Below are positions 1,329-36,092 of a DNA stretch of 40,648 nt, in pieces. The DNA is from Bacilli bacterium (lineage in GTDB: Bacteria > Bacillota_I > Bacilli_A > ML615J-28 > CAG-313). How positions within the stretch are numbered: the stretch's first letter is position 1; each line of letters starts with the position of its first letter. The DNA is taken from assembly GCA_045533785.1 (NCBI GenBank), contig JAZSIL010000050.1:1-40648 (forward strand), in the 5' to 3' direction. A program made the position numbers and the translations under genes. The notes under the pieces are model-generated. The model saw nothing but the letters and a program-made list of their open reading frames with translations. It did not search any database and had not been told where the DNA came from.

Positions 1329-1374
1329 AAGAAAGAAAATTATATAAAAAAATATTAAAGGATGGTGTAAAAAT

Positions 1375-14547: not shown

Positions 14548-14552
14548 AAAAT

Positions 14553-14592: not shown

Positions 14593-14660
14593 AAGTTTAA
14601 ACACTATGAAAATAAAAAAAATATGATATATTGGAATAAAAAAAGTATAAGAGGTGCCTA

Positions 14661-16938: not shown

Positions 16939-16991
16939 AAGTTAATAATTGCAAATTATAATAATATTAAACTTTAATGGAGGGTTTAAAT

Positions 16992-19900: not shown

Positions 19901-20264
19901 AGTTGTTTCTTCAATTATGATTGGAATTATTACTTATATTTCTGTTCTTGAAAGAACAAAAGAAATTGGTATTTTACGTGCTGTAGGTGCATCTAAGAAA
20001 GATGTATCGCGTGTATTTAATGCTGAAACAATGATCATTGGTTTATTTGCTGGTGTAATTGGTATTGGCGCTACAGTTCTTTTATGCTTCCCTATTAGTT
20101 GGATTGCACGTAGTGTTACAAATATTCAATCTTTAACAGCAGTTTTACCATGGTATGGATACTTATTAATTGTATTAAGTGTTGGACTTACTTTAATTGC
20201 AGGTATCTTCCCATCACGAATGGCTGCTAAAAAAGATCCTGTTGTAGCACTTAGAACAGAATAA
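16992..20264 (+). CDS. Fused ABC transporter ATP-binding protein / FtsX-family permease (MacB-like) with an oversized extracytoplasmic domain
   Basis: The ATPase has Walker A (GQSGCGKTT), the signature motif (MSGGQMQRVAIARAL) and Walker B (LLADEPTGALD). The C-terminus has an FtsX-type TM2-4 bundle (ERTKEIGILRAVGASKKDV). I place the start at 16992 (MLELKNIV) because GGAGGG (16979-16984) sits 7 nt upstream. The track start at 16977 would lie on top of that SD. Confidence 0.88.
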   Translation: MLELKNIVKEYPTGNNTLTALREINIAFRKSEFVAILGQSGCGKTTLLNIIGGLDKYTEGDLIINGISTKEYKDANWDAYRNHSIGFVFQSYNLIPHQNVLSNVELALTLSGVSKTERRNRAIEALTKVGLADQIYKKPNQMSGGQMQRVAIARALVNNPDILLADEPTGALDSETSIQIMEILKEVAKDKLVIMVTHNPELADTYANRIVKLLDGKIIDDSNPYTPIYKETEVTNTPKKIAKNKSMSLWTALTLSFNNLLTKKGRTILTAIAGSIGIIGIALILSISTGVNNYIDNVQQETLSSFPIQIEKESTNISALISSLMGVDAEEPADGIAKEDRTAVYGNPVMYKMMKAMLNAEVSTNNLEKFKVYLDEHNEELSDYTTAIQYGYNVKLNIYSTDPNGEYAKADFMDLMNGVFAGGSMSMGISSMMESSGGMTVWQELLTDPKTGEISNLIESQYDLVHGTWPKEKNEILLVLNESNEISDVTLYSLGLVDKQTMINATMAAMMGKEDNGWDAYEGKSWSYEDICNISLKMILPTDYYQFDDTTKLWVDISSNQALLNSVINKGLDLKISGIVKPSEDATSAFLSGSLCYTSALTNYYIETLNNTDMIKQQLSNDEYNIISGLPFVLEETEELTREEQIATFKEYVNGLTNNEKVKLYQQILSTPKKSFIDATIDGLLKQYENKTAEDIINHITTQYATELGYSEELIKDMLSGYTKEELIDIIIETVEQMIIKQQEEKALKIIEEIYATPSVEELQTMKMMLLSNLYKDVSQLPIEQQTIMKQQINYSFVASNWSQKTGMSIETALGVLKTMSINEFNVAFDNALNENAEKLYAQYSGMSSNADKAAKVAKAFDEYLANSTEDDFVYFYLNHMPDKISDKTKVDLLKDLGYKQTKDPDFINIYPIDFENKEIIANMITDYNNGVAEEDKIEYTDMVAMLMSSVSDIITAISVVLICFVSISLVVSSIMIGIITYISVLERTKEIGILRAVGASKKDVSRVFNAETMIIGLFAGVIGIGATVLLCFPISWIARSVTNIQSLTAVLPWYGYLLIVLSVGLTLIAGIFPSRMAAKKDPVVALRTE

Positions 20265-20337: not shown

Positions 20338-22410
20338 ATGTTTAAAATTGCTATTGACGGTCCAGCTGGTGCTGGGAAAAGTACTATTGCAAAAATTATT
20401 GCAAAAAAATTAAATATCGAATATATTGACACTGGAGCAATGTATCGTGCTGTAACCTTAAAAGCACTTCGATTAGGTGTTGATATGGAAGATGAAAACG
20501 CATATGAGTTTTTAAAGACAACTGTTCTTGATATTTGCAATGGTCGTTTTATTATGGATGGTGAAGATGTTTCAGAATCTATAAGAACTGTTGAAGTAAC
20601 AGAAAACGTTTCTACTCCATCTAAAATAGGTGTGGTTAGAGAATTTTTAGTTGAATATCAACGTAAAATAAGTGATTCTAAGAGTGTTATCATGGATGGA
20701 CGAGACATTGGTACTGTCGTACTTCCAAATGCAGAGCTTAAAATCTACTTAGTTGCATCCGTTGAATGTCGTGCTAAACGAAGAATGCTTGAGCGCGAAC
20801 AAAGTGGAATATTCAAGTCATTGGAAGAAACTATGCTTGAAATAGAAACTAGAGATCATAAAGATTCAACGCGAAAAATCAGTCCTCTAAAATGTGCTGA
20901 GGACGCTATCGTTGTCGATTCATCAAATATGACAATCGATGAGGTAGTTAGTGAAATTATTAAATTAGTGAATGAAAGGGGCTTAATTAAAATGAGCGAA
21001 AAAAACGAAAAGTACTATGTAGGACAAACTGTTACAGGTACAGTTACTGGTGTAAACAGTAATGCAATTTATTTAGAAATCGAAGAAGGAGTTAAGGCTG
21101 TAATCTATGCAAATGATTTACTAGAAGTACCAGGTAAATTATACTTAGAATACTCTGAAGGTGCAGAATATACTGCTCAAGTTAAGTCTATTGGTAAAGA
21201 TAAGAAAAACCCTAATGTTGTAGTTTTATATCTTTCTACAAAACTTGCTTATGAAAAAGAACAAGCTGAAGCAAAAGAAAAAGCATTACAAGAAAAAATT
21301 GCTGCATTCCATGCTATCAAAGAAGCTGATGAAGTAATTATGGCTAAAGTTTTAAGAACTACTAAAAATGGTGCTGAACTTACTTACAATAATACTAAAT
21401 TATTCTTATCTTATAAACATTCATCACTTAGTGAAGAAGCTTTAAAACAATTAAAAGGTGAAGAAATTCCTGTTATCGTATTATATGTTAATGAAGAACG
21501 TCATTTCATTTCTGTTAGCCAAATTGCTGCAGAAAAGAAACAAAAGAGACTTGCTAAAGAAGCAGCTTATGGTGCTTTAGAAGTTGGTCAAGTTGTTGAA
21601 GGTGAAGTTGTTTCAATTCTTGCTTATGGTGCAATTGTTAAACTAGGTTTAGTTAGTGGTTTATTACATGCATCTGAAATTGATCATTTCCCTGTTCGTG
21701 ACGTTAAGAAAGTTTTATCAGTAGGTAAAAAAGTTACTGTTAAAGTTATTAAGATTGAAGATGAAAAAATTGGTCTTTCAATGAAAGCTTTAACTACTCA
21801 TCCTTGGGAAGTATTGAAAGAAAAATATCATGTTGGTGATGTATTCGAAGGTACAGTTAAAAAGATTATTCCTGCTGGTTTAATTATTGAACTTACTCCT
21901 GAATATTCTGGTTTAATGCCTAAAATGGAATACTCTTGGTTAGTAAATGAAAAATATGATGGCGTTGTTAATGAAGGCGACAAAATTTTAGTTAAAGTAA
22001 TGAACATTGATGATAAGAAATTTAGAGTTAGTTTATCACATCGTGAAACTGTTGAAAATGCTTGGAATGGTATTAAACTTCGTAAAGGTGAACTTATTGA
22101 AGTTGAAGTTGTTCGTGATGTTGAACGCGGTGCTGAAGTAACTTATAAAACTGTTACTGGTTTCTTACCTGTTAATGAAGTTTCAAGTTCAAAACGTGTT
22201 ACAAATGTAACTGATGAATTTGCTGCTGGAAGTAAAGTTACTGCTATGGTATTAGAATGTGATCCAAATCGTGCAAAACTTGTTGTTTCTGTTAAAGCAG
22301 TTGAAGTTGCTAAAGAAAGAGAAACTTTTGATTCTTATATGAAAGAACAAGAACAAGAAAACACTGGAAGCACAATTGGTGATCTTCTTGGTGATGCATT
22401 AAAAAAATAA
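20338..22410 (+). CDS. cmk: Bifunctional cytidylate kinase / ribosomal protein S1 fusion
   Basis: This is a single 690-codon frame. The N-terminal ~218 aa is Cmk (IAIDGPAGAGKST, GRDIGTVV). The C-terminal ~470 aa contains four S1 (OB-fold) repeats of the form G..V.G.V..I...G....L. The order cmk - rpsA(ypfD) - der - gpsA matches B. subtilis. Confidence 0.88.
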   Translation: MFKIAIDGPAGAGKSTIAKIIAKKLNIEYIDTGAMYRAVTLKALRLGVDMEDENAYEFLKTTVLDICNGRFIMDGEDVSESIRTVEVTENVSTPSKIGVVREFLVEYQRKISDSKSVIMDGRDIGTVVLPNAELKIYLVASVECRAKRRMLEREQSGIFKSLEETMLEIETRDHKDSTRKISPLKCAEDAIVVDSSNMTIDEVVSEIIKLVNERGLIKMSEKNEKYYVGQTVTGTVTGVNSNAIYLEIEEGVKAVIYANDLLEVPGKLYLEYSEGAEYTAQVKSIGKDKKNPNVVVLYLSTKLAYEKEQAEAKEKALQEKIAAFHAIKEADEVIMAKVLRTTKNGAELTYNNTKLFLSYKHSSLSEEALKQLKGEEIPVIVLYVNEERHFISVSQIAAEKKQKRLAKEAAYGALEVGQVVEGEVVSILAYGAIVKLGLVSGLLHASEIDHFPVRDVKKVLSVGKKVTVKVIKIEDEKIGLSMKALTTHPWEVLKEKYHVGDVFEGTVKKIIPAGLIIELTPEYSGLMPKMEYSWLVNEKYDGVVNEGDKILVKVMNIDDKKFRVSLSHRETVENAWNGIKLRKGELIEVEVVRDVERGAEVTYKTVTGFLPVNEVSSSKRVTNVTDEFAAGSKVTAMVLECDPNRAKLVVSVKAVEVAKERETFDSYMKEQEQENTGSTIGDLLGDALKK

Positions 22411-23742: not shown

Positions 23743-24741
23743 ATGCAAGTTACTGTAATTGGTGGCGGAAGTTGGGGAAGTGCTCTAGCTAGGATTTTAG
23801 GTGATAATGGTCATGATGTTATAATTTATGATCGTACACTTGAAGTAGTAAATGAAATAAATCTATATCATACAAACAAAAGTAAATTACCTGTTGGAAC
23901 ACTACCACTTAATGTAAGCGCTACAGTTAATTTAGAAGAAGCTTTAAAAAATTCAAATGTTATTGTTCTTGCAGTACCTACTAAGGTCATTAGAAGTGTA
24001 TTACAGTCGATGAATAATTATTTAACACATAAATGTTTATTCGTTAACGCAAGTAAAGGTTTAGAACCAGATACTTTCTTAAGAGTATCAGAAATTGTAT
24101 ATCAAGAAATTAATAATGAATTAATAGATGATTTTGTTGCTTTAACTGGTCCTTCACATGCCGAAGAAGTAATTAATCAATTGCTTACAACTATTTGTGC
24201 TGTAAGTAATAACAAAAAAGCAGCAAAAGTTGTTCAATCATTATTTAATAATAGTAAATATTTTAGAGTCTATACAAGTTATGATTTAATAGGTGCTGAA
24301 CTTTGTGGTGCCTTAAAGAATATTTATGCAATAGCATCTGGCATGTTATTTGGTATTGGACTTGGAGATAATGCTAAAGCTGGACTAATTTCAAGGGCAC
24401 TTGTTGAGATGAGAAGATTTGTTATCTCTTATGGTGCAAATGAAGAAACAATTTATGGTTTAACTGGACTAGGTGATTTAGTAGTAACAACTACAAGTAA
24501 ACATTCAAGAAATTTCCAAGCAGGTTATCGCCTTGCAACAGGAAAAAATCTTGAAGAGACTATTGCTTCTATGACAATGGTCGTTGAAGGTGCAAGAACT
24601 GTTGTTGCTGCGTATCAATATGCTAGAGTTAATAATTTAGAAACACCAATCATTGATGCGGTATATGATGTTTTGTATAATAAAAAACCTGTTAAAACTG
24701 CAATAAATCAACTTATGAAAAGATCATTAAAAGATGAATAA
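23743..24741 (+). CDS. gpsA: NAD(P)H-dependent glycerol-3-phosphate dehydrogenase GpsA
   Basis: The 332-aa ORF has a Rossmann motif (GGGSWGSALA), plus GALKNIYAIA and GLGDL motifs. Its ATG abuts the der stop codon. Confidence 0.92.
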   Translation: MQVTVIGGGSWGSALARILGDNGHDVIIYDRTLEVVNEINLYHTNKSKLPVGTLPLNVSATVNLEEALKNSNVIVLAVPTKVIRSVLQSMNNYLTHKCLFVNASKGLEPDTFLRVSEIVYQEINNELIDDFVALTGPSHAEEVINQLLTTICAVSNNKKAAKVVQSLFNNSKYFRVYTSYDLIGAELCGALKNIYAIASGMLFGIGLGDNAKAGLISRALVEMRRFVISYGANEETIYGLTGLGDLVVTTTSKHSRNFQAGYRLATGKNLEETIASMTMVVEGARTVVAAYQYARVNNLETPIIDAVYDVLYNKKPVKTAINQLMKRSLKDE

Positions 24742-24773
24742 AGGGAAAATTTGAACTTTATTCATCTTTTTTT
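24731..24773 (+). terminator. Rho-independent terminator after gpsA
   Basis: A 13-bp stem, aagatgaataaag (24731-24743, which includes the gpsA stop codon), pairs with ctttattcatctt (24756-24768). A T-run extends to 24773. Confidence 0.75.
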
Positions 24774-24782
24774 ATCGTATTT

Positions 24783-24811
24783 TTGCAATATTTTTAAAAT
24801 AATGTTATAAT
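24783..24811 (+). promoter_or_regulatory. Sigma-A type promoter of cassette 1 (micro-ORF plus giant amidase protein)
   Basis: TTGCAA (24783-24788) is followed by a 17-nt spacer and TGtTATAAT (24803-24811). It lies about 33 nt upstream of the micro-ORF ATG. Confidence 0.6.
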
Positions 24812-24843
24812 AAATGAGTAATTTTTTTAAAGGAGAAAATATA

Positions 24844-24972
24844 ATGAATAAAAGCTATGAAACTCCTTCTATCGAAATTATTAACTATGAATCTGAAGTG
24901 CTAACTGCTGGTGGAAGCGTTGTAATCGACTTCCCTTGGGTAGAAGATGGCGAATCAGAATTCTTCGCATAG
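24844..24972 (+). CDS. Unannotated 42-aa acidic peptide (MNKSYETPSIEIINYESEVLTAGGSVVIDFPWVEDGESEFFA), paralog of 29280..29408; function unknown
   Basis: My own translation. The SD aAGGAGaa sits 8 nt before the ATG, and the stop TAG overlaps the SD of the next gene. An equal-length paralog shares 25/42 identical residues, and the conserved residues are encoded by different synonymous codons (gct ggt gga agc gtt gta atc versus gca ggt ggt agt gta gta ata, both AGGSVVI). Confidence 0.7.
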   Translation: MNKSYETPSIEIINYESEVLTAGGSVVIDFPWVEDGESEFFA

Positions 24973-24986
24973 GAGGAAATTAAATT

Positions 24987-27900
24987 ATGAAAAAAATAGT
25001 TTTAAGTTTATTAACTGTTTTCATGGTTCTATCATTAAGTGTAGTGCTTGTTAAAGCTGATGTTACAACTACCGTTTCATTAGAAGACGGTGTACAAATT
25101 AGAACTGATGGGAACAATGGTTTAAAATGGGTTGCAAATGTAGAAAACTACGCTGAAGGCAATGAATATGGTTTCTTATTTGCACAAGGTGATTTAGCTG
25201 AAGTTACAGTTGCATCAGAAGGTGTAGTTAAACAAGTTGTAGAAGGTGTTACTTTAGAAGAACCAGTTATGTCTGCTACAATGGTTAACTTCCCTAAGAA
25301 AGCTGCTAATCAAGATATTAGTGTTGTTGCATATGTTTATGATGGTGAAAATTATTCATATTCAAATGTAGTTGTTAGAAATCTTGCAGAAGTTGCAGTT
25401 TATGCTAAAAACACTATTGATGGTGATTTTGTAAATGCAGTTGCTGAATATGTAGGTGAAAATTATAAGAAAACATTTACCGATGCTCAAGGCTCATTAT
25501 ATTATGATAATGCATTATATGAAACTAACCATGTAGTTCTTGCTGAAGAATTTATTGATGACTGGAATACTTTATTTTCAACTTCGTTAGATGCTGCAAC
25601 AACTTTTACTGGTGGATCTAGTTCTACATGGTATAAGTCTGCTAAAACAAGTTCTCAAACATCTTGGGCAAATTCTAAGTTAAAAGAGTTTTTCCAAAAT
25701 GAAGCTATGTATGCAAAATGGGGTTGGTTATTAAATTATATAATTAATGAATTATCTAATGGTACCGGTCATGGTTTTGCAAAATCACAAGCAGAAGCAA
25801 TAATTAATAATGTTGAAGATACAGCAAATTGGTATTACAGTGGTCATTTATGTTCATTTGTCATGAGTTTTATGACAGGTGAATATCAAAGTTCTGGTTG
25901 GGGAAGTTATAACTTTGGTAATTATCCAGAAAAATTAGCATTAGTAAGAAATTATAATAATACTATTTATGCAAATTATAAATACTCAACTTTAGTTGAA
26001 AAAAATGCAATTGTTAATTTACCAGTCCCAAATAATAAAACTGGTTATTCATCTAATTGGGTCTATAATTCAGTTGAATATGCAGATGGTAGCGAATTTT
26101 CTTTAGATGCTAATACTAATTATTTTCTAACTAGTAATTATAAAGCTATTAATTATACTGTATCATTCTATGATGGTGCTACTAATTTAACAAATTTCGC
26201 ATTAACTTATAATATTGAATCTAGTGATTTAATTTTACCTGAATATGAAAAGTCAGGTTATGTATTCAAAGGATGGTACACAACCTCTACATTTGAAGAG
26301 GGTACTGAAATTGATATAATATATGCGGGTTCTTGTGAAGATGTAGTTGTTTATGCAAAATTAGAAGAAACATCTAATGTTAGTGTTAATGTTACATTAA
26401 ATCCAAATGGTGGATGTTGGGATGCTGCAACAACTTTAGAAAATGCTACTATTTTAAAACAAGCAACTTTAACTAGATATTTGACTAGAGCATCAAGTAC
26501 GGGGTATGATGCTAGTTTACATACCGGTACTTATTCATATTGGTATCATTTACTACTAAAAGAAACTTCAATTAGTGGTATTTATGAAATTGTTTCTAAG
26601 GGTTATGGAGCAACTTCAGTTACTGATTATAATCTTTCTATTATATGGCATGGTTCATTGACTGATGCTACATCTAAAACTGCATTAACTGCACTTTATA
26701 ATGATGCAAGTACTATTGGAAAATATGTTATTCTTGAAAATGTTCCTGCTGCATCTTCATCATCATGTTCGATTACTGTTAATGTCATTGATGCTAGTGA
26801 ATTAACTAAATCTTTAACTAAAACTTTAATTGAAAAAGAAGAATTACCTACACCAATTCATGCAAATAGTGATTATAGTTTTGGTGGTTGGAAATCAAGT
26901 GTTGATGGCTCAATTGTAACTGAATTCCCTGCTTACTCATCTAATCCTGGTGATATTACTTATACTGCTCAGTGGGAATCAAATTTAAAAGATGTTACTG
27001 TTAACTTTGATACTAATGGTGGAGCATTTGTAAATTATGAGTCTGTTGATGCTGCGATAGCTGATTTCCTAAAAGATTATAATACTGCAAGAAATAAATC
27101 TCATACTCCTGAAACATTCTATGCATTAGGATCATGGGGAGAAATTTCTGACGCTTCATTATTCTTATATAATTCAAATTATAAAGAAAAATGGACTTGG
27201 CTTGTAAATTATATTGCTGGTGTAGCCGGTGGTGCAAATAAAAATGCTTTTACAAACTTCTATAATTACTCATCACAATCTGAATTAAATGCCGCTAATG
27301 GAAATTATATTTACTCGATAGCCTATGAACTTCGTGGTTGGGTTGCTCAAGCAAAGTATTCTCAAAATGCAAACTTCATCACTGCTGATTATTCTAGTGC
27401 TACAGTTCAAGCAGCGTTTAATTCTGCTAATACACTACCTTTAAGCTATGTTTATACTGATCCTTGTACTTTACCTAAACCATTTAAACAAGGTTATACA
27501 TTTAAAGGTTGGTATACAAATGAATCATTAACTGGTGATGCTGTTACTAGTTATCCTGGTTATTATACTAATATAGGTGAAATTACTTATTATGCTAAGT
27601 GGTCAAGTTCAATTATTGTTACATACGATACTGATCCATTTACTGAAGTTGGTAATTCTATTCAATTAAATGCTAAAATTTTAGGTGAATTAATTGGTAA
27701 TTTTGTATGGGAAAGTAAAAATACAAGTGTTGCAACAGTTGATCAAAATGGTCTAGTTACAGGTGTTAAAGAAGGAACTGCTACTATTTATGTTTATGAT
27801 TCTGGTGATCCTCATGTAAATTTAAGCATTGAAATTTCTGTTGTTTCTGCAGGCCTTAGTGATCTTTTTAGTATTATTTCTGATGCTCATAATAATACAG

Positions 27901-29021
27901 TATTTAATCGCGATAATTTAGGTATTGGTGCGGGAACTCCAGTTTATTATACAAATGTTTATGGAAGTGTTAGTAAAATTTTATATAACCAACCATTAAA
28001 TATTGATAAAACTTATGCTACTACTGATGTTGATGACTTTGACACATTAAGATCATTAGAATTTATTACAGTTCACTATACTGGTAATATGAGTGTAGGT
28101 GCTGATGCTAGAGCAAATGCTCAATATTTTGCATCCGAAAATAATACTTCAATTCATTATACAACTGGAAATGATGGTGTTTATCAAGCTTTAACTCATG
28201 ATAAAGGAGCATGGCATGCAGGAGATGGTGCTTCAGTTAATCAAGTAGGATATTTTACTTGGAATAAAACAGGTGTTAAATATGATGGTGGTGATTTATT
28301 AAAAATCAAGTGGACTGCATCAGATGACTTTTATTTTGAAATTAATGGTAAAAAGACTTCAATAAAATTACCTTCAACATGGAATTATAACAGTAGAAAT
28401 ACAGATCACGTATTTAATTCAGATGGAACAATTAGTTCAAAATCAAGTTATGCATATAGTTTCTCCAATCGTTCTCCAGAATCATTCTTTAATGATTGGG
28501 GATTTCCAGTAAAAGTTGAAAATGGTGAATATTATATGGGTACTACTTGGTGGTGCTATAGTCAAGTTCATGAAGGCCGTATTTGTGGATCTGGTGGAAA
28601 CCTTAATTCAATTGGTATTGAATCTTGTGTTGATAAGGGTTCGGATTTATGGTATACTTGGCAATTAACTGCTAAACTAGTTGCTAAACTTTGTTATGAA
28701 AATAATCTTGGTTTTGAAAGAATTAGACCACATCATGCTTATACAGCTAAAGATTGTCCTCAACCATTATTAGAAAATAATATGGAAATTTGGTGGGAAT
28801 TTATGGATCTTGTCAAGTATGAATATGAATTATTAACAAAGTTTAGTGATTATAATATTACATTTGTATCGAATAATAACGAATTTATTTCAAATAATGG
28901 TAGAGTAATTAAAGTTCCAGAAGATGACACAGTAGTTAGTTATACTGTTACTTTAACACATAAAACTACTGGAGCTGCTAATTCTGTAACTTACTTTGCT
29001 ACTATACCAGGTTCTAAATAA
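24987..29021 (+). CDS. Giant secreted multidomain cell-surface protein with a C-terminal N-acetylmuramoyl-L-alanine amidase (Amidase_2) domain
   Basis: The 1344-aa protein has a Sec signal peptide (..VVLVKA/DVT). It has Listeria-Bacteroides type repeats (GYVFKGWYT.., FGGWKSSVDGS.., GYTFKGWYTNE..) and a Big_2-like Ig domain (VGNSIQLNAKI..VWESKNTSVATVDQNGLVTGVKEGTATIYV). Amidase_2 motifs are ITVHYTG, GAWHAGDG, NSIGIESC and RPHHAYTAKDCPQP. Confidence 0.85.
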   Translation: MKKIVLSLLTVFMVLSLSVVLVKADVTTTVSLEDGVQIRTDGNNGLKWVANVENYAEGNEYGFLFAQGDLAEVTVASEGVVKQVVEGVTLEEPVMSATMVNFPKKAANQDISVVAYVYDGENYSYSNVVVRNLAEVAVYAKNTIDGDFVNAVAEYVGENYKKTFTDAQGSLYYDNALYETNHVVLAEEFIDDWNTLFSTSLDAATTFTGGSSSTWYKSAKTSSQTSWANSKLKEFFQNEAMYAKWGWLLNYIINELSNGTGHGFAKSQAEAIINNVEDTANWYYSGHLCSFVMSFMTGEYQSSGWGSYNFGNYPEKLALVRNYNNTIYANYKYSTLVEKNAIVNLPVPNNKTGYSSNWVYNSVEYADGSEFSLDANTNYFLTSNYKAINYTVSFYDGATNLTNFALTYNIESSDLILPEYEKSGYVFKGWYTTSTFEEGTEIDIIYAGSCEDVVVYAKLEETSNVSVNVTLNPNGGCWDAATTLENATILKQATLTRYLTRASSTGYDASLHTGTYSYWYHLLLKETSISGIYEIVSKGYGATSVTDYNLSIIWHGSLTDATSKTALTALYNDASTIGKYVILENVPAASSSSCSITVNVIDASELTKSLTKTLIEKEELPTPIHANSDYSFGGWKSSVDGSIVTEFPAYSSNPGDITYTAQWESNLKDVTVNFDTNGGAFVNYESVDAAIADFLKDYNTARNKSHTPETFYALGSWGEISDASLFLYNSNYKEKWTWLVNYIAGVAGGANKNAFTNFYNYSSQSELNAANGNYIYSIAYELRGWVAQAKYSQNANFITADYSSATVQAAFNSANTLPLSYVYTDPCTLPKPFKQGYTFKGWYTNESLTGDAVTSYPGYYTNIGEITYYAKWSSSIIVTYDTDPFTEVGNSIQLNAKILGELIGNFVWESKNTSVATVDQNGLVTGVKEGTATIYVYDSGDPHVNLSIEISVVSAGLSDLFSIISDAHNNTVFNRDNLGIGAGTPVYYTNVYGSVSKILYNQPLNIDKTYATTDVDDFDTLRSLEFITVHYTGNMSVGADARANAQYFASENNTSIHYTTGNDGVYQALTHDKGAWHAGDGASVNQVGYFTWNKTGVKYDGGDLLKIKWTASDDFYFEINGKKTSIKLPSTWNYNSRNTDHVFNSDGTISSKSSYAYSFSNRSPESFFNDWGFPVKVENGEYYMGTTWWCYSQVHEGRICGSGGNLNSIGIESCVDKGSDLWYTWQLTAKLVAKLCYENNLGFERIRPHHAYTAKDCPQPLLENNMEIWWEFMDLVKYEYELLTKFSDYNITFVSNNNEFISNNGRVIKVPEDDTVVSYTVTLTHKTTGAANSVTYFATIPGSK

Positions 29022-29066
29022 AATATTTAATTTGGCTTAAAATGTTTTATCTTAGATTATAAAATT

Positions 29067-29105
29067 AAAAAAGGAATGATACTTGATATTTCATTCCTTT
29101 TTTTT
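29067..29105 (+). terminator. Rho-independent terminator after giant protein A
   Basis: The stem aaaaaaggaatga (29067-29079) pairs with tcattcctttttt (29091-29103), and a T-run continues beyond it. Confidence 0.75.
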
Positions 29106-29239
29106 ATAAAATTATAAATAAAATACAAAAAAAATTTGATAATAAAAGAAAATATTATTTAATTTATCTCTTATTAAATGTTGAAAAAACTAAAATGTAA
29201 TATTTATTAAGTAAAAAAAAAACAATTTTTATAAAAATA

Positions 29240-29248
29240 TGATATAAT
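29240..29248 (+). promoter_or_regulatory. Extended -10 element (TGaTATAAT) of cassette 2
   Basis: tgatataat lies at 29240-29248, 31 nt upstream of the second micro-ORF ATG. There is no good -35 hexamer at 17-nt spacing. Confidence 0.45.
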
Positions 29249-29279
29249 ATATAAGTAATTAATTTATAAGGAGAATATT

Positions 29280-29408
29280 ATGAATAAAAATTATGATGTT
29301 CCTTCTATTAAAATTATAAGTTTTGATTCGGAAATTCAAAGTGCAGGTGGTAGTGTAGTAATACAATTTCCATGGGCTGATGAAAATGAATCGGATTTTT
29401 TTAATTAG
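29280..29408 (+). CDS. Unannotated 42-aa acidic peptide (MNKNYDVPSIKIISFDSEIQSAGGSVVIQFPWADENESDFFN), paralog of 24844..24972; function unknown
   Basis: My own translation. The SD AGGAG (29269-29273) sits 6 nt before the ATG. The stop TAG (29406-29408) overlaps AGGAGG, the SD of the downstream GTG-initiated gene. It has the same length and layout as cassette 1. Confidence 0.7.
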   Translation: MNKNYDVPSIKIISFDSEIQSAGGSVVIQFPWADENESDFFN

Positions 29409-29420
29409 GAGGTATTTAAA

Positions 29421-32400
29421 GTGAAAAAAGTATTATTAAGTTTATTAGTGGTTTTAACTTTTATTTTTGTTGGCTTTTCATTAATTAAAGCTGATACACA
29501 AACTACTGTAGAGTTAATTGATGGTGTCCAAATTAGAACTGATAATTTAAATGGTTTAAAATGGGTAGCAAATGTTAAAAATCATGATAATAATAATGTT
29601 TATGGCTTTTTACTTGCACAAGGTGAAGTTTTAAACTTAACTATTGAGAATAAAGATGCTATGAATCAAGTTGTAGAAGGTGTTACTACAGAAGAACCTG
29701 TTATGAGTGTTACAATGGTTAATTTTCCAAAATCTGCAGCAACTACTGATATTAGTGTAAGAGCTTATGTAAAAGTTGGTAATAGTTATTATTATTCAAC
29801 TAATACAGTAGTTAGAAATCTTGCTGAAGTTGCGCTTTCTGCATATGGAACTACTGAAGGTAGTTTTGTAAATAATATTGTTAATTATGTTGATGAAAAC
29901 TACAAATCGCAATATGTTGGATTTGATGGTCTTATCAGCTTTGCTTCTGCAAAATATGAAGTTAATCCTGCAAATTTAGAAAAAGAATTTGTAAAAGATT
30001 GGAATGCTAAATTCGGTACTACCTGGACAGAATTTAATTATAATACATTTAATACTAGTGCAATTGCTGGTAATAAACCTTTAACAGCTGATACTGATAA
30101 AGATTGTTCTGGTACTAATGCTTATGCTTTCTTTAAAACTGATGCTGTTACTAGTGCTAAATGGGGTTGGCTATTACAATTTTTCCTTGCAGAAACTGCC
30201 ACAGGTGTTCACCCTAAATTACAAATGAATGCTGTAATTTCTGATACTGGTACTTATACTTTATTAAGTAATGGTAAAGAATATAGTGATTTATATCAAT
30301 TTAAACACCTATCTAGAAGTTTATATAATTTCTTTAAAGCTGGTACTGAGGATATTAATGATTATCCATCAGTTGGTTTTACAGATTCACATCTATTTGC
30401 TAAAATTAGTGAATATAATAACAAAATTATCGCATTTTCCCCTGAATTCGTTAAGGTAAATGAAGAAGTAGTTTTACCTGAAATAGAAAAAGATGGTTAT
30501 GTATTTGAAGGTTATTCTGTAGATGAATCAGAACCTTTAAAAGTTATTACTATTTCTAGCGAAAATAAATTAATTGTTCCACAATATTCTGCTGTACAAT
30601 ATACTGCCAAATTTATGCTTGGTTCAACTGAGTTAAAAGAATTAGAATTAGCTTATAATATTGAAGAAGATATTTATTTACCTACTCCAATTATTGAAGG
30701 GTATGATTTCTTAGGATGGTATGATAATGCTGAATTCACTGGAAATCCAATTGAAATGATCGAAACTGGTTCATATGGTGATAAAGTATTCTATGCAAAA
30801 ACAGAAACTCAAACTTATGTAAATGTTAATGTTACTTTTGATGCAAATGGTGGTAGTTTTAATCCAACTACAACTAATATTCCAGGAGATTTTGAAATTG
30901 AAGTAGAAAAAGCTGTAAACTATGCTGCTGATATTACATATTTAGCTCCATCTACTACTGCATCTACGCTTCGTTACCAATATAAGGTTATTTTAAATTA
31001 TAATGCTACACTAGGCTTATTTGAAGTAATCGCAGTAGATGCTGCCACTAAGACTTTAACTGAAGCAGCAGCTGGTGCTACTTGGACTCATGCTCTTGCT
31101 AACTCAGCAGAAAATATTACAACTAATTTCGTTGTTGGTCAATATGTTTATTTAAATACTACAGCTTTAGCAAGTGGTAAACAAGTTGCTCAAGTCTATA
31201 ATAGTTTAGATTCACTAACAAAATATTCTACAGTTATGAAAAAACCTGAAACTCTTCCAGTTCCTACTAATGGATTAGAAGAATTTGCTGGTTGGAAATC
31301 AAGTGTTGATGGAAGTATTATAAAAGAATATCCTGGTTATATGTCAAATCCTGGTGATATAACTTATACTGCTCAATGGGGCGATATCGTTAATGAAGAA
31401 ATTAATGCTGAAGTTACATTTGATTATAATGGTGCAATTTCAGAAGAAGTATATAAAGCTAATGGAACTAATTTATCAAGTTTAGTTTTAAGCGTTTATA
31501 ATGATAATGCTAATTATGCAACGTTAATGAAAGAAAATATCTTCATTTATAAGGCTGATAATGTTTATAATTCAAATTATTCATATAGATATTGTATCGC
31601 TAAAAATGCTTCAACTGGTTTATATGAAGTAACTCATTTCATTGATAAACTAGCTGCTGATTCAACTATTCCTGCTGGAACAGAATATGTTATTGTTATC
31701 TCAACTGGTTATACTGGTTCATATACTAGCAACTTTGATAGATCAAAAGTTGCAGTAGGTAATGTTGTATTATTTGATAAAGACTTTACAACTGCTTCGT
31801 CATCTAATTTAGTAACTGCTACATTCTATAGTAATAGTGTATCTAATTATAATGTTGTTGCAACTGTTACTGAAAGTTCAGTACTTCCAACTCCTATTAG
31901 AGTTGATTATAAATTTGGTGGCTGGTATGATACTAATGATAATTTAATTGATTCTGTTGAAGACTTACGTGGTATTCCTGCCATTACACTTGTTGCTAAA
32001 TGGAATTCAACTTCTAATATTAATGCTGAAGTCACATTTGATTATAATGGTGGTATAACAGAAGAACTTATTAAGACTAAGGGTTCTCCTGCTGGATCAC
32101 TTATTATTAGTAATTACAATGGTAATTTCTGGAATTTATATGCAGATAATACATTTATTTATCCTGTTGGTACATCATTTAATCCTCAAGGTGCAAAACG
32201 TATTTATATTGCACAAAATTCATATAATGGATTATATTATGTTTTAGGTACTCAAACTAGTGGTGTAAGCGCAAAACCTGAAGGTACTGATTATATTATT
32301 ACTGTAAGTGATTCATATTCAGGTACTTATGATGATAATTTTGATGTTTCTAAACTTGCAAAAGGTGATATCGTATTCTTTAACAAATCATTTACTGCTG

Positions 32401-33953
32401 CTTCATCTACTAATTTAGTTACTTTATCATTCTATAAAGGAACTATTGCTAATGATTCTATTACTCAAACTATTAATAGTGATGTTAAGTTTGTAACTCC
32501 TGTAAAAGATGGTTATAAATTTGCTGGTTGGTATGATGCAAATGATAATTTATATTCAACATATAAAGATTTAGCTGGCGTTGAAACTATTACTTTAACA
32601 GCTAAATATGTATTTGATGATACCCTAGTTGGATCATTTAAAGATAATTCATGGGTTGAAGTAGGTAGTTCTATTAAATTAAATTACAAATTTGTTTCAG
32701 GAAGTAATATCGCAGTTTCTTGGAAATCTAACAATCCTAGTATTGCAGAAGTAGATGCTGAAGGTAACGTTACTGGTAATGCTGTTGGTCTTGCTGAAAT
32801 CGTAGTTTATGCAAATGATGCACCTAGTATTTCATTTATATATTATGTAACTGTAGTTGCTGATGGTGCTAGTTCAATGCTTCAAGTATTACTAGATAGT
32901 AATAATGAAAGTATCTTTATTAGAAATGATTTAGGTATTGGTGCTGGTACTCCTGCATATTATTATGATGCTATTGGTAGTGTTTCTAATTTATTATTCA
33001 CTACATATACTGAACATAAAAATTTCTATCTATCTAGTCCTTCTAATAAATCAACTTTAACTGGTTCAGGTACTGGTGGTGTTGACTTTGTTTGTGTTCA
33101 CTATGCTGCTGACATGCCTTATTCTGCTACATATTCTAAAAAAGGTGGTTCAAATTTAGCATCTTATAATAAGACTTGTAATACAAATGGTACAGGTGCT
33201 TCATGGCATTATAGTGTAGGTAATGACGGTGTTTGGTATTGTCAAAATACTGCTTATGGTGCATGGCATGCAGGGACATCTAAGACAATGACTTGGACTT
33301 CAACTGGTCTTACAACTGCTAAACTTGGCACTAATGTTTATACAACAGATGTTACACTAGGGTCTGATGGATATTTCTATATAAAAGGTATAAAAACTTC
33401 AGTTAAAAATACAACTGGTTATACTAGATTAAATTCATTAGGTTTAGGTGTTAAATTAAGTGGATCTACTTGGTATTTAGGTGGACATTACTATAATTCA
33501 TCTTATAAATATATTTCTTCATTAGGTGGTAACTGTAACTCTATTGGTATGGAAACATCTGTTAGAGAAGGTTCAGACCTTTGGTTAACATGGCAATATA
33601 CTGCTCAACTTTGTGCTAAGTTATTAATTCAATTTAATTTACCAATTCAACGTCTTGTAGGTCATCATTTCTTCTCAGGAAAAGATTGTCCTCAACCATT
33701 ATTATTAAATGAAAATGAAATTTGGCATGTATTTAGAGAAATGGTTATTCAACAAATGGCTTACTTCAAGGCATATGGTTCAGCTGGTGCTGCTCCTACT
33801 TTAAGTTCTACAAGTAAATATATTGATTCTAAAGGTAGAGTAACAAGTTTACCAACTTATTCAACTTGTCAAACTTATACACTATCTTATAAAGATGGAT
33901 CTTCAACTAAGACTGTTACATTATCTACAATTATTCCTGGTACTATTGCTTAA
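29421..33953 (+). CDS. Giant secreted multidomain cell-surface protein with a C-terminal Amidase_2 domain (paralog of 24987..29021)
   Basis: The 1510-aa ORF has a GTG start 8 nt after AGGAGG and a signal peptide (..FSLIKA/DTQ). Its N-terminal domain is about 65% identical, by eye, to protein A. It has Listeria-Bacteroides type repeats, a Big_2-like domain (VGSSIKLNYKF..WKSNNPSIAEVDAEGNVTGNAVGLAEIVV) and Amidase_2 motifs (VCVHYAAD, GAWHAGTS, NSIGMETS, GHHFFSGKDCPQP). Confidence 0.85.
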   Translation: MKKVLLSLLVVLTFIFVGFSLIKADTQTTVELIDGVQIRTDNLNGLKWVANVKNHDNNNVYGFLLAQGEVLNLTIENKDAMNQVVEGVTTEEPVMSVTMVNFPKSAATTDISVRAYVKVGNSYYYSTNTVVRNLAEVALSAYGTTEGSFVNNIVNYVDENYKSQYVGFDGLISFASAKYEVNPANLEKEFVKDWNAKFGTTWTEFNYNTFNTSAIAGNKPLTADTDKDCSGTNAYAFFKTDAVTSAKWGWLLQFFLAETATGVHPKLQMNAVISDTGTYTLLSNGKEYSDLYQFKHLSRSLYNFFKAGTEDINDYPSVGFTDSHLFAKISEYNNKIIAFSPEFVKVNEEVVLPEIEKDGYVFEGYSVDESEPLKVITISSENKLIVPQYSAVQYTAKFMLGSTELKELELAYNIEEDIYLPTPIIEGYDFLGWYDNAEFTGNPIEMIETGSYGDKVFYAKTETQTYVNVNVTFDANGGSFNPTTTNIPGDFEIEVEKAVNYAADITYLAPSTTASTLRYQYKVILNYNATLGLFEVIAVDAATKTLTEAAAGATWTHALANSAENITTNFVVGQYVYLNTTALASGKQVAQVYNSLDSLTKYSTVMKKPETLPVPTNGLEEFAGWKSSVDGSIIKEYPGYMSNPGDITYTAQWGDIVNEEINAEVTFDYNGAISEEVYKANGTNLSSLVLSVYNDNANYATLMKENIFIYKADNVYNSNYSYRYCIAKNASTGLYEVTHFIDKLAADSTIPAGTEYVIVISTGYTGSYTSNFDRSKVAVGNVVLFDKDFTTASSSNLVTATFYSNSVSNYNVVATVTESSVLPTPIRVDYKFGGWYDTNDNLIDSVEDLRGIPAITLVAKWNSTSNINAEVTFDYNGGITEELIKTKGSPAGSLIISNYNGNFWNLYADNTFIYPVGTSFNPQGAKRIYIAQNSYNGLYYVLGTQTSGVSAKPEGTDYIITVSDSYSGTYDDNFDVSKLAKGDIVFFNKSFTAASSTNLVTLSFYKGTIANDSITQTINSDVKFVTPVKDGYKFAGWYDANDNLYSTYKDLAGVETITLTAKYVFDDTLVGSFKDNSWVEVGSSIKLNYKFVSGSNIAVSWKSNNPSIAEVDAEGNVTGNAVGLAEIVVYANDAPSISFIYYVTVVADGASSMLQVLLDSNNESIFIRNDLGIGAGTPAYYYDAIGSVSNLLFTTYTEHKNFYLSSPSNKSTLTGSGTGGVDFVCVHYAADMPYSATYSKKGGSNLASYNKTCNTNGTGASWHYSVGNDGVWYCQNTAYGAWHAGTSKTMTWTSTGLTTAKLGTNVYTTDVTLGSDGYFYIKGIKTSVKNTTGYTRLNSLGLGVKLSGSTWYLGGHYYNSSYKYISSLGGNCNSIGMETSVREGSDLWLTWQYTAQLCAKLLIQFNLPIQRLVGHHFFSGKDCPQPLLLNENEIWHVFREMVIQQMAYFKAYGSAGAAPTLSSTSKYIDSKGRVTSLPTYSTCQTYTLSYKDGSSTKTVTLSTIIPGTIA
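31401..32636 (+). repeat. In-frame tandem duplication of a 618-nt (206-aa) module inside giant protein B
   Basis: Both units start attaatgctgaagt.acatttgattataatggtg (INAEVTFDYNG), at 31401 and 32019. Both end in a Y-K-F-[GA]-G-W-Y-D repeat. They have diverged substantially at the protein level. Confidence 0.8.
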
Positions 33954-33966
33954 TAAATAAAAATTA

Positions 33967-33999
33967 AAGACTCCAAACATAAGTTTGGAGTCTTGTTTT
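33967..33999 (+). terminator. Terminator after giant protein B
   Basis: A perfect 12-bp stem, aagactccaaac (33967-33978) pairing with gtttggagtctt (33983-33994), has a 4-nt loop. The U-tract (gtttta) is short and interrupted. Confidence 0.65.
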
Positions 34000-34047
34000 A
34001 TTAGAATATTATTATTTTATTTACATATTATTATGTGAGGTGAGATT

Positions 34048-34284
34048 ATGAATTTTAATAAAGCGTTGCAATTTATTTCTGATAATAATATTCAACCAGA
34101 AGCTGTTTTTGAATTAGTAGAAAAAGTTAAAAGTATGGATTTATCCAATGAAGACAATATTCGTAATGTTATTAGGGATGTATCTAAACTTGCAGGTAAG
34201 CCTATTGATAGAGCGCAAGAAGATAATATTGTTAGAGAAATTATGAAAAATGGTGTCAATGATAATCTTTTTAATATGTTGTAG
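34048..34284 (+). CDS. Small hypothetical protein, possibly SpoVIF-like (stage VI sporulation protein F family)
   Basis: The 78-aa ORF has an SD GAGGTGA. The pattern ..PEAVFELVEKV...DLSNEDNIRNVIRDVSKLAGKPI...EDNIVREI.. resembles SpoVIF-family proteins as I remember them. The family assignment is weak. Confidence 0.5.
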   Translation: MNFNKALQFISDNNIQPEAVFELVEKVKSMDLSNEDNIRNVIRDVSKLAGKPIDRAQEDNIVREIMKNGVNDNLFNML

Positions 34285-34304
34285 AAAAAAATAATTCGTT
34301 CTAC

Positions 34305-34333
34305 TTGAGTTTTAGGATAAGTTATGGTATAAT
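34305..34333 (+). promoter_or_regulatory. Sigma-A type promoter for yceD-rpmF
   Basis: TTGAGT (34305-34310) is followed by a 17-nt spacer and TGgTATAAT (34325-34333). Confidence 0.55.
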
Positions 34334-34356
34334 ATATCAGGTAGTGTGGTGATTTT

Positions 34357-34848
34357 ATGAAATGGTCTTTACAACAATTATTAAAAATCAATAAATTCCC
34401 ATATCATTTTGAGGAAACATTAGATTTAAGTGCTGAAATTGAAAATGTAGAAGACATCTATGAAATTGGTCCAGTAAATATAACTGGTAGTATAAATAGA
34501 TTAGATGATGAAACTTATCAATTTATCTACAAAGTTTCTGTAAAACTTGTTTTGCAATGTGCTTTGACACTTGATCCTGTTGATTATTTATTTGAAGAAG
34601 ACTATGATGAAATTTATTCTACAACTCCTAATGATGAATATATCTTAATCGAAAAAAATACGATTGATACTTATCAAATGGTTTGGTCGAATATTATTAT
34701 TGATAAACCCATCAATGTAACGCGTCCTGATGCATATGAAGTATTAAAAGAAAGAGGTATTTCATTAGATGACGAAATCGAATTAGATGATGATGATTAT
34801 GTAATCTCTTATTCTGATGGTCGTCAAGAAGATGATGAAGAAATTTAG
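34357..34848 (+). CDS. DUF177 / YceD family protein (23S rRNA accumulation protein)
   Basis: The 163-aa acidic protein lies immediately upstream of rpmF, which is the canonical yceD-rpmF arrangement. Confidence 0.75.
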   Translation: MKWSLQQLLKINKFPYHFEETLDLSAEIENVEDIYEIGPVNITGSINRLDDETYQFIYKVSVKLVLQCALTLDPVDYLFEEDYDEIYSTTPNDEYILIEKNTIDTYQMVWSNIIIDKPINVTRPDAYEVLKERGISLDDEIELDDDDYVISYSDGRQEDDEEI

Positions 34849-34864
34849 AAAGAGGTACTAGAAA

Positions 34865-35071
34865 ATGGGTGCAATTGCTCAACAACGTCGTGTTTCTAAG
34901 ACTCGTAAATTAAAACGTCGTACACATTACAAACTAGAAGTTCCTGGAATGGTAGTTTGTTCAAACTGTGGTGAATTAAAATTAAGTCATCGTGTTTGTC
35001 CTGAATGTGGATTCTACAACGGAAAACAAGTTAAAGAAATCAAACAAAAAGAAAACAAAGATAACGAATAA
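34865..35071 (+). CDS. rpmF: 50S ribosomal protein L32
   Basis: The 68-aa ORF has the N-terminal [17 protein letters not shown] stretch and a zinc ribbon ([18 protein letters not shown]). Confidence 0.92.
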
Positions 35072-35110
35072 TTAGGGTTTTAATGATTCGTTTGGGAGAA
35101 ATCCTGTCAA

Positions 35111-35137
35111 AAGCGCATCAGTGGATGCGTTTTTTTT
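35111..35137 (+). terminator. Rho-independent terminator after rpmF
   Basis: A GC-rich stem, cgcatc (35114-35119) pairing with gatgcg (35124-35129), has loop agtg and is followed by an 8-nt T-run. Confidence 0.7.
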
Positions 35138-35159
35138 ATAAAAAAATTGGAGGCTTGAA

Positions 35160-36092
35160 ATGGATAACTATAAGCACTATTCAGTATTATTAAATGAAAG
35201 CATTGAAATGTTAAATATTAAACCTAATGGGATTTATGTTGATTGTACATTAGGTGGTGGCGGACATTCATTAGAAATTGTAAAAAAATTAACAACTGGT
35301 CATTTGTTTACTTTTGATCAAGATGATTATGCAATTTCAAAAGCTAAAGTTCGTTTACAAGGATTTGAAAATAATTATACGATTATAAATGCAAATTTTT
35401 CTAATATTAAATTTGCTTTATTAGAACATGGAATTGAACATGTAGATGGAGTAATATATGATTTGGGTGTATCTAGTTTTCAATTTGATATTCCAGAACG
35501 TGGATTTAGTTATCGCTTTGATGGCCCTTTAGATATGAGAATGGATCAAAATGCATCATTATCTGCTTATGATGTTATTAATAACTATTCCGAAAATGAT
35601 TTAAAAAGAATATTATATGAATATGGTGAAGAAAAGTTTGCTCCTAGTATTGCAAGAGGAATTGTTAAAGCAAGATCTGTTAAACCGATTGAAACAACTT
35701 TTGAACTTGTTGAAGTAATTAAAAGATCACTTCCAGCATCTGTTTTAAGAAAAGCTGGTCATCCAGCTAAACAAACCTTCCAAGCCCTTCGTATTGAAGT
35801 AAATGGTGAACTTGATGTCCTAAAGAACAGTTTAGAAGATGCTGTGAAATTACTTAATACAGGTGGACGAGTTGTTGTGATTACATTCCAATCATTAGAA
35901 GATAGAATTGTAAAACAAATGTTTAAAAAATTTACAACACTTGATATTCCAAAAGGACTTCCTTTTGTACCTGATTATATGAAAGTGGAATATAAACTTG
36001 TAAATAATAAAGTTATTTTACCAAGTGAAAAAGAACTTGATGAAAATAATCGTAGTCATTCTGCTAAAATGCGTGGAATTGAAAAATTATAA
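35160..36092 (+). CDS. rsmH: 16S rRNA (cytosine1402-N4)-methyltransferase RsmH (MraW)
   Basis: The 310-aa ORF carries HYSVLLNE, DCTLGGGGHS, DLGVSSFQFD and SHSAKMR motifs. Confidence 0.93.
   Translation: MDNYKHYSVLLNESIEMLNIKPNGIYVDCTLGGGGHSLEIVKKLTTGHLFTFDQDDYAISKAKVRLQGFENNYTIINANFSNIKFALLEHGIEHVDGVIYDLGVSSFQFDIPERGFSYRFDGPLDMRMDQNASLSAYDVINNYSENDLKRILYEYGEEKFAPSIARGIVKARSVKPIETTFELVEVIKRSLPASVLRKAGHPAKQTFQALRIEVNGELDVLKNSLEDAVKLLNTGGRVVVITFQSLEDRIVKQMFKKFTTLDIPKGLPFVPDYMKVEYKLVNNKVILPSEKELDENNRSHSAKMRGIEKL

Follow-up and report, generated by a model that had tools for sequence, protein, structure and literature searches.

A micro-ORF peptide family paired with secreted handle-domain proteins in the tandem cassettes of a Bacilli bacterium

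The duplicated cassette and its large secreted proteins

The DNA considered here, called the window below, is an entire NCBI contig of 40,648 bp (JAZSIL010000050.1, about 30% GC) from a Bacilli bacterium, whose housekeeping proteins are 90-100% identical to those of the metagenome-assembled genome (MAG) 'Erysipelotrichaceae bacterium SIG222'. It carries two units of the same layout in tandem, each consisting of a promoter, an open reading frame (ORF) of 42 codons, the gene for a Sec-type protein of 1344 or 1510 amino acids (aa), and a terminator. The short frame (the micro-ORF), its peptide, and their relation to the large protein (the giant) are the subject of this report. An earlier note, made from the DNA letters, had described the two cassettes and suggested that peptide and giant are a functional unit. 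The ORFs were located where it had placed them, the tandem duplication of a two-gene operon is real, and the original observation is confirmed. The idea of a functional unit also holds, with the unit being the peptide together with an N-terminal "handle" domain of the large protein.

All features of the cassettes given here are on the plus strand. The promoter of cassette 1 (24783..24811, TTGCAA-17-TGtTATAAT) was found by a consensus scan with 10 of 12 matches plus the TG extension. It precedes micro-ORF 1 (24844..24972, 42 aa, MNKSYETPSIEIINYESEVLTAGGSVVIDFPWVEDGESEFFA), which has its own Shine-Dalgarno (SD) sequence AAGGAG at 24830..24835; an alternative longer start at 24814 falls 5' of the predicted transcription start. 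Giant gene 1 (24987..29021, 1344 aa) follows, and then a terminator whose hairpin at 29067..29103, with the U run through 29107, has a 13-bp stem and U8 (-13.4 kcal/mol, z -4.5). The extended -10 of cassette 2, TGaTATAAT at 29240..29248, was read directly from the sequence, the consensus scan having missed this promoter because it has no good -35. Micro-ORF 2 (29280..29408, 42 aa, MNKNYDVPSIKIISFDSEIQSAGGSVVIQFPWADENESDFFN) is followed by giant gene 2 (29421..33953, 1510 aa, GTG start), with the domain order of giant 1, and by a terminator at 33967..33994 with a 12-bp stem (-18 kcal/mol, z -5.7). No known RNA was found by Rfam within 24000..35500. Upstream of cassette 1 lies gpsA (23743..24741), with a terminator-like hairpin at 24735..24764 just 5' of promoter 1; downstream of cassette 2, from 34048 onward, are SpoVIF and then yceD and rpmF. 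The flanking gpsA and yceD-rpmF neighbourhoods had thus been correctly named earlier, with SpoVIF overlooked.

The two giants are paralogous, as had been proposed (BLASTP E 3e-105 and 8e-66, 32-35% identity), and Pfam finds Flg_new, Big_2 and Amidase_2 in both. Giant 1 consists of a signal peptide (aa 1-24), the handle beta-sandwich (aa 25-165), a helical domain (aa ~166-345), Flg_new repeats, Big_2 (aa 883-936) and Amidase_2 (aa ~1023-1277); in giant 2, Big_2 spans aa 1093-1133 and Amidase_2 aa 1221-1426. Scores in the two giants are 49.8 and 45.7 bits for Amidase_2 (PF01510, cutoff 26), 46.7 and 69.1 bits for Flg_new (PF09479), and 57.4 and 43 bits for TIGR02543 (List_Bact_rpt), all above cutoff. 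The putative signal peptide of giant 1, MKKIVLSLLTVFMVLSLSVVLVKA followed by D, was read by eye as MKK, 19 hydrophobic residues and VKA before the D, and giant 2 has an equivalent. The difference in size, earlier ascribed to module number, is indeed largely due to a module of ~200 aa duplicated in tandem inside giant 2 (31371..32000 and 32001..32630, 45% identity, E 8e-57). The helical 'DWN...KWGWLLNYI' region that follows the handle domain recurs weakly within giant 1 (25485..26021 and 26997..27500, E 0.001), and is also present in a Big_2 lipoprotein fragment (P0027), there without the handle domain.

In alignment with XlyA and PlyL, the Amidase_2 domains keep the predicted Zn-binding His/His/Cys and the catalytic Glu (VH, IGIE, PHH, DCP). 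With modular Gram-positive wall hydrolases and InlB-type B-repeats the giants have in common these Amidase_2 residues and the presence of Flg_new and Big_2 modules. Unlike hydrolases of the XlyA/PlyL type, the giants have 1344 or 1510 aa, a novel N-terminal beta-sandwich and helical region with no Pfam match, and an insertion of ~120 aa that splits the catalytic domain (28230..28590 of the window, giant 1 aa ~1083-1202, with an equivalent in giant 2), falling between WHAGDG and GGNxNSIGxE, motifs that are adjacent in XlyA. They also lack a known wall anchor; Pfam found no SLH, choline-binding or LPXTG-type module, in agreement with what had been noted before. For giant 1 residues 25-345, Pfam, NCBIfam, PHROGs and PADLOC gave nothing significant, a homologue search with residues 25-390 returned 6 fragments only, and a metagenome scan with a helical-domain pattern returned 6 loci only. 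By sequence, the giants are new members of the known modular wall-hydrolase and Flg_new families, with an undescribed N-terminal handle domain.

The micro-ORF peptides and the handle domain

Micro-ORF 1 and micro-ORF 2 have 61% identity and 88% similarity (E 2e-20), and their comparison gives pN 0.217, pS 0.730 and a dN/dS of 0.095, with dS saturated; dN/dS among pairs of the wider family is mostly 0.1-0.5. Three protein searches gave 23, 18 and 49 matches, nearly all of 36-47 aa and none of them named or assigned a Pfam domain, and 73 distinct homologues of 36-47 aa were collected. A strong SD of its own precedes the micro-ORF at every copy inspected. Micro-ORF 1 has a net charge of -8, no Cys and no signal peptide; the mean net charge of the 73 peptides is -7, and Cys occurs in only two. 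Each of the 73 has Y-x-x-P-x-[ILVFA] near the N-terminus, within a constant N-terminal half of the form K-x-Y-x-x-P-x-[IL]-E-[IV]-[IL]. This end is the best-conserved part of the peptide. The C-terminal half, made up of [FY]PW, an acidic run and an aromatic pair, diverges together with the handle domain of the partner protein, its acidic tail has indels, and the Trp lies 9-12 residues from the C-terminus. Modelled alone, the peptide has pLDDT 63 and no secondary structure and is predicted to be disordered.

The peptides had no significant match in Pfam, NCBIfam, PHROGs or PADLOC. Neither their profile nor its N-terminal 25 residues matched a sequence in the PDB, and no described small ORF beside Flg_new proteins was found in the literature. 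In the NCBI record of a closely related MAG (the sister genome) three giant genes bear consecutive locus tags, so that its micro-ORFs must be unannotated there. The micro-ORF is, on these comparisons, evidently a real gene under selection and the representative of a new, apparently unannotated small-protein family. One metagenomic peptide of 62 aa (P0037) begins with micro-ORF residues 1-24 and ends with the C-terminal ~38 residues of a giant amidase; this chimera is either a near-complete deletion of a giant gene or an assembly artefact.

The handle domain of giant 1 (25059..25481, about 140 residues) is a beta-sandwich belonging to no Pfam family. In an AlphaFold2 (AF2) model of residues 25-345, with a mean pLDDT of 72 and values of 80-90 across most of the beta-sandwich, a nine-strand sandwich is followed by an all-helical domain, and Foldseek gave generic Ig-like or FN3 matches only (E > 1e-3), with TapA among many equal ones. 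Between giants 1 and 2, identity is 0.62 in the handle domain, 0.46 in the signal peptide and ~0.3 elsewhere. The micro-ORF (61%) and the handle (62%), set against ~30% for the rest, therefore form a jointly conserved 5' module.

Co-occurrence was examined in the window and 35 fetched loci (numbered L001 onward; coordinates given with an L number refer to that locus), in which a family hidden Markov model (HMM) found 45 micro-ORFs. Nearly all of them overlap the start of a secreted partner's gene or lie 8-16 nucleotides (nt) 5' of it, and within its first ~30 residues the partner already enters the match to the handle-domain HMM. The partner products open with a Sec-type signal peptide followed by the handle domain, recognizable by the motifs G[AV]Q[IV]R..G[LIM][KR][FW] and [IV].[AV]R[AS]Y, and a handle-domain HMM matches every partner protein. 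What lies beyond the handle is of three types: amidase proteins of 1336-1578 aa, Flg_new proteins of 777-1632 aa without an amidase, and proteins of 254-498 aa built from 2-4 copies of the beta-sandwich. From these sequence comparisons, the constant feature of the partner is the signal peptide plus N-terminal handle domain, and not the amidase. Of the functional unit proposed earlier, the part concerning the micro-ORF stands, as it is kept under strong purifying selection; the assignment of its partner is shifted from the amidase to the handle domain. Distances among peptides correlate with those among handle domains (Mantel rho 0.54-0.57, p 5e-4), and the N-terminal part of the peptide holds 0.51-0.55 identity where handle identity is below 40%.

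A peptide acting on the catalytic domain, as immunity protein, inhibitor or activator of Amidase_2, might have been expected from the window, where both cassettes, like several in the sister genome, end in an Amidase_2 with intact Zn-binding and catalytic residues. However, most partners at other loci have no amidase domain (L007, L008, L010, L011, L012, L024, L027, L032), and amidase proteins occur without a micro-ORF of their own (the 463 aa and 1364 aa proteins of L019, 466 aa in L029 and 1455 aa in L001). An amidase-specific factor of this kind is thus highly improbable; the immunity or inhibitor version is contradicted by the co-occurrence data and was rejected.

The pairing of micro-ORF and handle gene is real but not one to one. 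When the gpsA-SpoVIF interval was compared in the sister genome, as the earlier note had suggested, three giants and two micro-ORFs were found. The middle giant is intact at 1455 aa and has its own terminator, TGtTATAAT promoter and SD. At the junction (L001 5366..5480, JGI Ga0257091_10000042, with the same arrangement in L002-L004 and L006) its SD region, AAAGGAGTAGAAGATT-ATG, is nearly identical to the SD region of the neighbouring cassette's micro-ORF and is joined directly to the ATG, which looks as if a natural deletion had removed precisely the micro-ORF. That genome has at least five other copies. The block had also been regarded as an accessory element of the gpsA interval; it is present there, but the cassette is not special to the interval, since a related genome carries five or more of them, spread over four contigs.

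Handle genes without a micro-ORF of their own are also found as the third gene of L019, later in an operon, and as the first gene of L024, after rplQ. In L013 (5388..5900) and L015 (5370..5985) a gap of ~500 nt, with no micro-ORF and no obvious ORF, precedes a distant handle gene (25% identity). Conversely, distant micro-ORFs of 36-47 aa lie 3' of the partner gene in L025 and L029-L031, with no downstream partner gene found. In L025 a convergent pair (1132..1275 on the plus strand and 1325..1438 on the minus strand) lies behind two Flg_new genes, and in L029-L031 a 36 aa copy lies between the partner gene and hrcA (L029 6068..6178; L031 3525..3635). A handle at the C-terminal ends of the large L025 proteins would account for these 3' copies, but the handle HMM gave only a weak partial match of 8.7 bits there.

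Several variants of the arrangement were observed in addition. A second subfamily of micro-ORFs (MKKEYELPKFEI...VFFEE) lies after rpoA-rplQ and overlaps the start of genes for the 254-498 aa secreted proteins with 2-4 handle copies (L027 6001..8570; L008 7655..8882; L011 4853..6080; L024 6001..7646; L032 218..1106); it is duplicated in tandem in L027, and a small M50 peptidase gene usually follows. In L009, which is from SIG222, the giant is split into a 321 aa handle ORF (10135..11100) and a 1357 aa Flg_new/Big_2/Amidase_2 ORF (11218..15291); this may be a pseudogene, the effect of a frameshift or a true division of the gene. Cassettes can also sit in larger glycan-hydrolase clusters (L019 4460..12132; L008 12887..14050), one of which has the order 463 aa Amidase_2 protein, micro-ORF, 884 aa handle/Flg_new protein, GH18 (EndoS-like TIM barrel) and 1364 aa amidase giant.

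Predicted pairing with the downstream Shine-Dalgarno site

The consensus of 13 cassettes obtained with RNAalifold contains a predicted long-range helix of 12 bp, in which codons 8-11 of the micro-ORF pair with the stretch that runs from its penultimate codon through the TAG stop to GAGG, the SD of the big gene. In cassette 1 the 5' arm (CCUUCUAUCGAA, codons 8-11, anti-SD-like) lies at 24865..24876 and the 3' arm, which includes the SD of giant 1, at 24964..24976; in cassette 2 the arms lie at 29301..29312 and 29400..29412, with the pairing kept by two adjacent compensatory changes. The helix hides the SD in the minimum free energy (MFE) and centroid folds of both window cassettes. Among the 13 sequences, 94.9% of cells in the helix are paired, compared with 39-54% when the partner is slid.

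Codon usage in the 5' arm appears to favor the pairing. In nine of the 13 sequences the native codons give -14 to -16.7 kcal/mol, as opposed to -8.8 +/- 3 in synonymous recodings, and in 9/13 the codons used for T-P-S-I-E-I rank within the top 0-2% of recodings by pairing. Cassette 1 itself is in the top 0.4% of synonymous recodings in pairing strength, and cassette 2 at the 19th percentile only. Pro8 is CCT in all 13, and Pro31 alternates between CCT and CCA. In the main subfamily the TAG stop abuts the GAGG, 8-15 nt ahead of the start codon of the big gene. Together these findings are suggestive of translational coupling in the main subfamily, cassette 1 included and cassette 2 less strongly so. 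The big protein would then be produced mainly while ribosomes are translating the peptide ORF, and with this operon design the peptide would always be produced along with the big protein and ahead of it. Fusion of the peptide to the giant by stop-codon read-through or frameshifting was considered and rejected, as the two are 8-15 nt apart and their relative frame is not the same in all cassettes.

Leader ORFs that unmask a downstream SD by translational coupling are known from secM-secA, mifM-yidC2 and the erm leaders. The micro-ORF resembles these in being a short upstream ORF with its stop beside the downstream SD and with a predicted SD-hiding pairing that ribosomes could open. It differs from them in that the whole peptide is conserved, and not only a C-terminal arrest motif, in that the pairing is confined to one subfamily, and in that the micro-ORF may be missing or may follow its partner on the 3' side. 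The peptide has no N-terminal membrane or secretion sensor segment, and the downstream gene encodes a secretion substrate and not a component of the secretion machine.

It might accordingly be supposed that the micro-ORF acts mainly in cis, its translation or an arrest of the nascent peptide opening the anti-SD:SD helix, with the released peptide having no role. The stop abutting GAGG in the main subfamily, the sequestered SD in both folds of both cassettes, the codons at T-P-S-I-E-I and the invariant CCT at Pro8 are all what such a leader would show. Against it, all 42 residues are conserved, and the N-terminus most of all, and the distance of 9-12 residues between Trp32 and the C-terminus is atypical of tunnel-dependent arrest peptides. 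Divergent subfamilies keep the peptide without the helix, the 3' copies have nothing to regulate, and the giant gene is intact where the micro-ORF appears to have been naturally deleted. The big gene also has its own strong GGAGG and only a weak local hairpin. A purely cis-acting leader is for these reasons quite unlikely. The RNA pairing is not why the peptide is conserved. With a giant left intact by an apparent micro-ORF deletion and with copies 3' of their partners, the peptide is, so far as comparison of loci can tell, a trans-acting product and not just a leader ORF.

The leader-like N-terminus, a proposed role, and the gene neighbourhood

The N-terminus of the peptides recalls the leaders of some peptides that are made on the ribosome and modified after translation (RiPPs). 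The leaders of lasso peptides and of linear polyphosphorylated peptides (LPP) bind RRE domains through [Y/W]xxPx[L/V/I/F/A], as an added beta-strand, and LPP precursors have the consensus YxxPxVLxHQxIxFETxxS and are encoded near genes for a SipW-like peptidase, RRE, HprK-like kinase, NTP-transferase and MsbA-like exporter (PMC13381572). Published lasso precursors from rumen Firmicutes include MKTWITPAVEELEIVETAQ followed by GK... and MTYNKPSFEKISSFKESTM followed by GV... (PMC7533575). The micro-ORF N-terminus, K-x-Y-x-x-P-S-I-E-I-I, fits the lasso/LPP motif. A lasso-leader HMM, built from 29 published leaders only (PMC7533575, Table 3) and searched against ~5970 six-frame ORFs of the window and loci, placed micro-ORFs at all of ranks 1-28, with individual E-values that are weak (best 0.01; micro-ORF 1, 2.1).

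Like lasso and LPP precursors, the peptides have 36-47 aa, begin as M-K-K-x-[Y/W]-x-x-P-x-[LIV]-E-[LIV]-[LIV], have a Thr with a small residue behind it ~16 positions beyond the aromatic residue, carry many Trp and Phe in an acidic C-terminal part, and are predicted to be disordered. Unlike in such precursors, the ring-forming Asp/Glu or the Thr(-2) is missing from two thirds of the peptides, purifying selection acts on the C-terminal half, and the micro-ORF, present several times per genome, is tied to the gene of a secreted handle-domain protein. Only 24 of the 73 have the full lasso core signature (Thr at -2, a small residue at 1, Asp/Glu at 7-9); micro-ORF 1 has it (T21, G23, D29) and micro-ORF 2 does not (S21 at -2, Q29 at 7). 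With the LPP consensus the peptides share only YxxPx[IV] and the T-x-x-(x)-S spacing. No lasso cyclase (Asn-synthase-like), PqqD-like B1 RRE or B2/transglutaminase-like peptidase, and no radical SAM enzyme, HprK-like kinase, other LPP enzyme or dedicated exporter, was found in the 40-kb window or in the annotated flanks, for which precomputed Pfam lists covering up to 6-10 kb around the loci were used. With the core in only 24/73 and no RiPP enzymes in the flanks, the family cannot be filed as one of lasso or LPP precursors; its N-terminus is RiPP-leader-like, in genomic surroundings from which such peptides have not been described. Two specific classes were rejected: a canonical lasso peptide for the whole family, on the core signature, and a double-glycine bacteriocin leader, as the GG varies (GA, EA, AA and others) and no C39 transporter is nearby.

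The micro-ORFs could still be genuine RiPP precursors, lasso or linear LPP, matured and exported by enzymes encoded elsewhere in the genome, with no direct tie to the handle and with the promoter shared with surface-protein genes solely for co-expression. Such precursors would account for the motif in 73/73 and the enrichment of micro-ORFs by the lasso-leader HMM, for the T(-2), Gly1 and Asp7 of micro-ORF 1, for a near-invariant Ser 3-4 residues past the Thr that recalls the LPP motif ETxxS, for distant members with a constant N-terminus and variable C-terminus, and for the predicted disorder. They would not account for the strict 8-16 nt spacing to handle genes in every lineage, and micro-ORF 2, with Ser at -2 and Gln at 7, is equally conserved although it lacks the core that two thirds of the family lack. 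The presumed "core" is moreover under purifying and not diversifying selection, and PqqD/RRE, cyclase, peptidase, radical SAM and HprK-like kinase genes are missing from the window and the flank lists. Independent RiPP precursors are on balance unlikely.

The reading put forward here, tentatively and at somewhat less than an even chance, makes the peptide a bipartite adaptor or ligand that acts in trans, is tied to the handle-domain exoproteins and would bind to them. The peptide is read in this way because it looks bipartite, with a constant leader-like N-terminal half and a C-terminal half that diverges with the handle. The cassette would thus be a two-gene operon in which an acidic, Cys-free peptide without a signal comes first and a Sec-exported modular exoprotein second. 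The cognate of the peptide would be the N-terminal handle module that heads secreted Flg_new proteins, whether the payload is an amidase, repeats only or handle repeats only. The N-terminal end of the peptide may dock on a shared factor, with the other end serving the cognate handle-bearing protein. As to the form in which the peptide would act, a leader-guided, matured and exported ligand is one variant and an unmodified cytoplasmic escort another, and either one taken singly is rather doubtful. Also rather doubtful is a lasso/LPP-type precursor co-opted, in gut Erysipelotrichaceae and related Bacilli, as half of an undescribed two-part system. There machinery encoded elsewhere would mature and export the peptide under the guidance of an RRE-type leader, and the variable acidic, aromatic C-terminal part would be a handle-specific ligand, for example an anchor or activation key, the handle being at the head of a family of surface enzymes and adhesin-like proteins that have no other anchor. 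What probability remains is left to functions outside the readings given.

A number of points weigh against an adaptor or ligand of this kind. Peptide and handle domain are both acidic, as counted from sequence, so that there is no charge complementarity between them. The handle folds outside the cell while the peptide has no signal peptide, and no conserved transporter is found near the cassettes (window and annotated flanks). The handle as modelled by AF2 seems to be a complete nine-strand sandwich without the peptide, and distant handle-domain proteins (L013-L015, L017) have no micro-ORF. The co-divergence of peptide and handle may be mere shared inheritance of adjacent genes. As for the coupling step, covariation of the helix is not significant, being reached in 93 of 500 shuffles, and the helix is not present in the divergent subfamilies. 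Physical binding, the cellular compartment, maturation or export, and the mechanism of coupling are all matters that we infer.

Small acidic cognate chaperones or adaptors are known beside secreted substrates, among them the class I chaperones of type III secretion (T3SS) and the partner proteins of the type VII secretion system (T7SS) and LXG proteins. The micro-ORF peptide is like these in being small, acidic, signal-less and the co-expressed neighbour of a secreted protein with a conserved N-terminal region. It differs from them in having only 42 aa and in its predicted disorder. Unlike in the T3SS/T7SS cases, the substrates have ordinary Sec-type signal peptides with no dedicated secretion system nearby, and binding is here something we infer.

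The family brings together two fields that seldom meet, that of RiPP-style leader peptides and that of how large secreted proteins are displayed. Binding to the handle, or escort of the pre-protein, would account for the handling of large, anchor-less wall hydrolases and Flg_new proteins in uncultured gut Firmicutes, and the leader motif would then have a function beyond biosynthetic gene clusters. Were the peptides true RiPPs instead, they would make up a multi-copy precursor family scattered from its enzymes and missed by clustering-based genome mining tools.

Some minor features of the neighbourhood may also be recorded. At 20338..22410 a single ORF of 690 aa is a cmk-rpsA fusion, joining cytidylate kinase (aa 4-212) to S1 RNA-binding repeats. 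Genes of a surface or host-interaction type are found near the cassettes at 14661..16841 (a 726 aa BspA-type leucine-rich repeat protein), 16977..20264 (a 1095 aa fused ABC-ATPase/FtsX permease) and 39101..40045 (a sialate O-acetylesterase-like, or SASA, protein). An ISL3-family transposase lies between rsmH and an aldose epimerase gene in L001 (17304..18476), L003 and L004; the insertion is not present at that site in the window or in L002.

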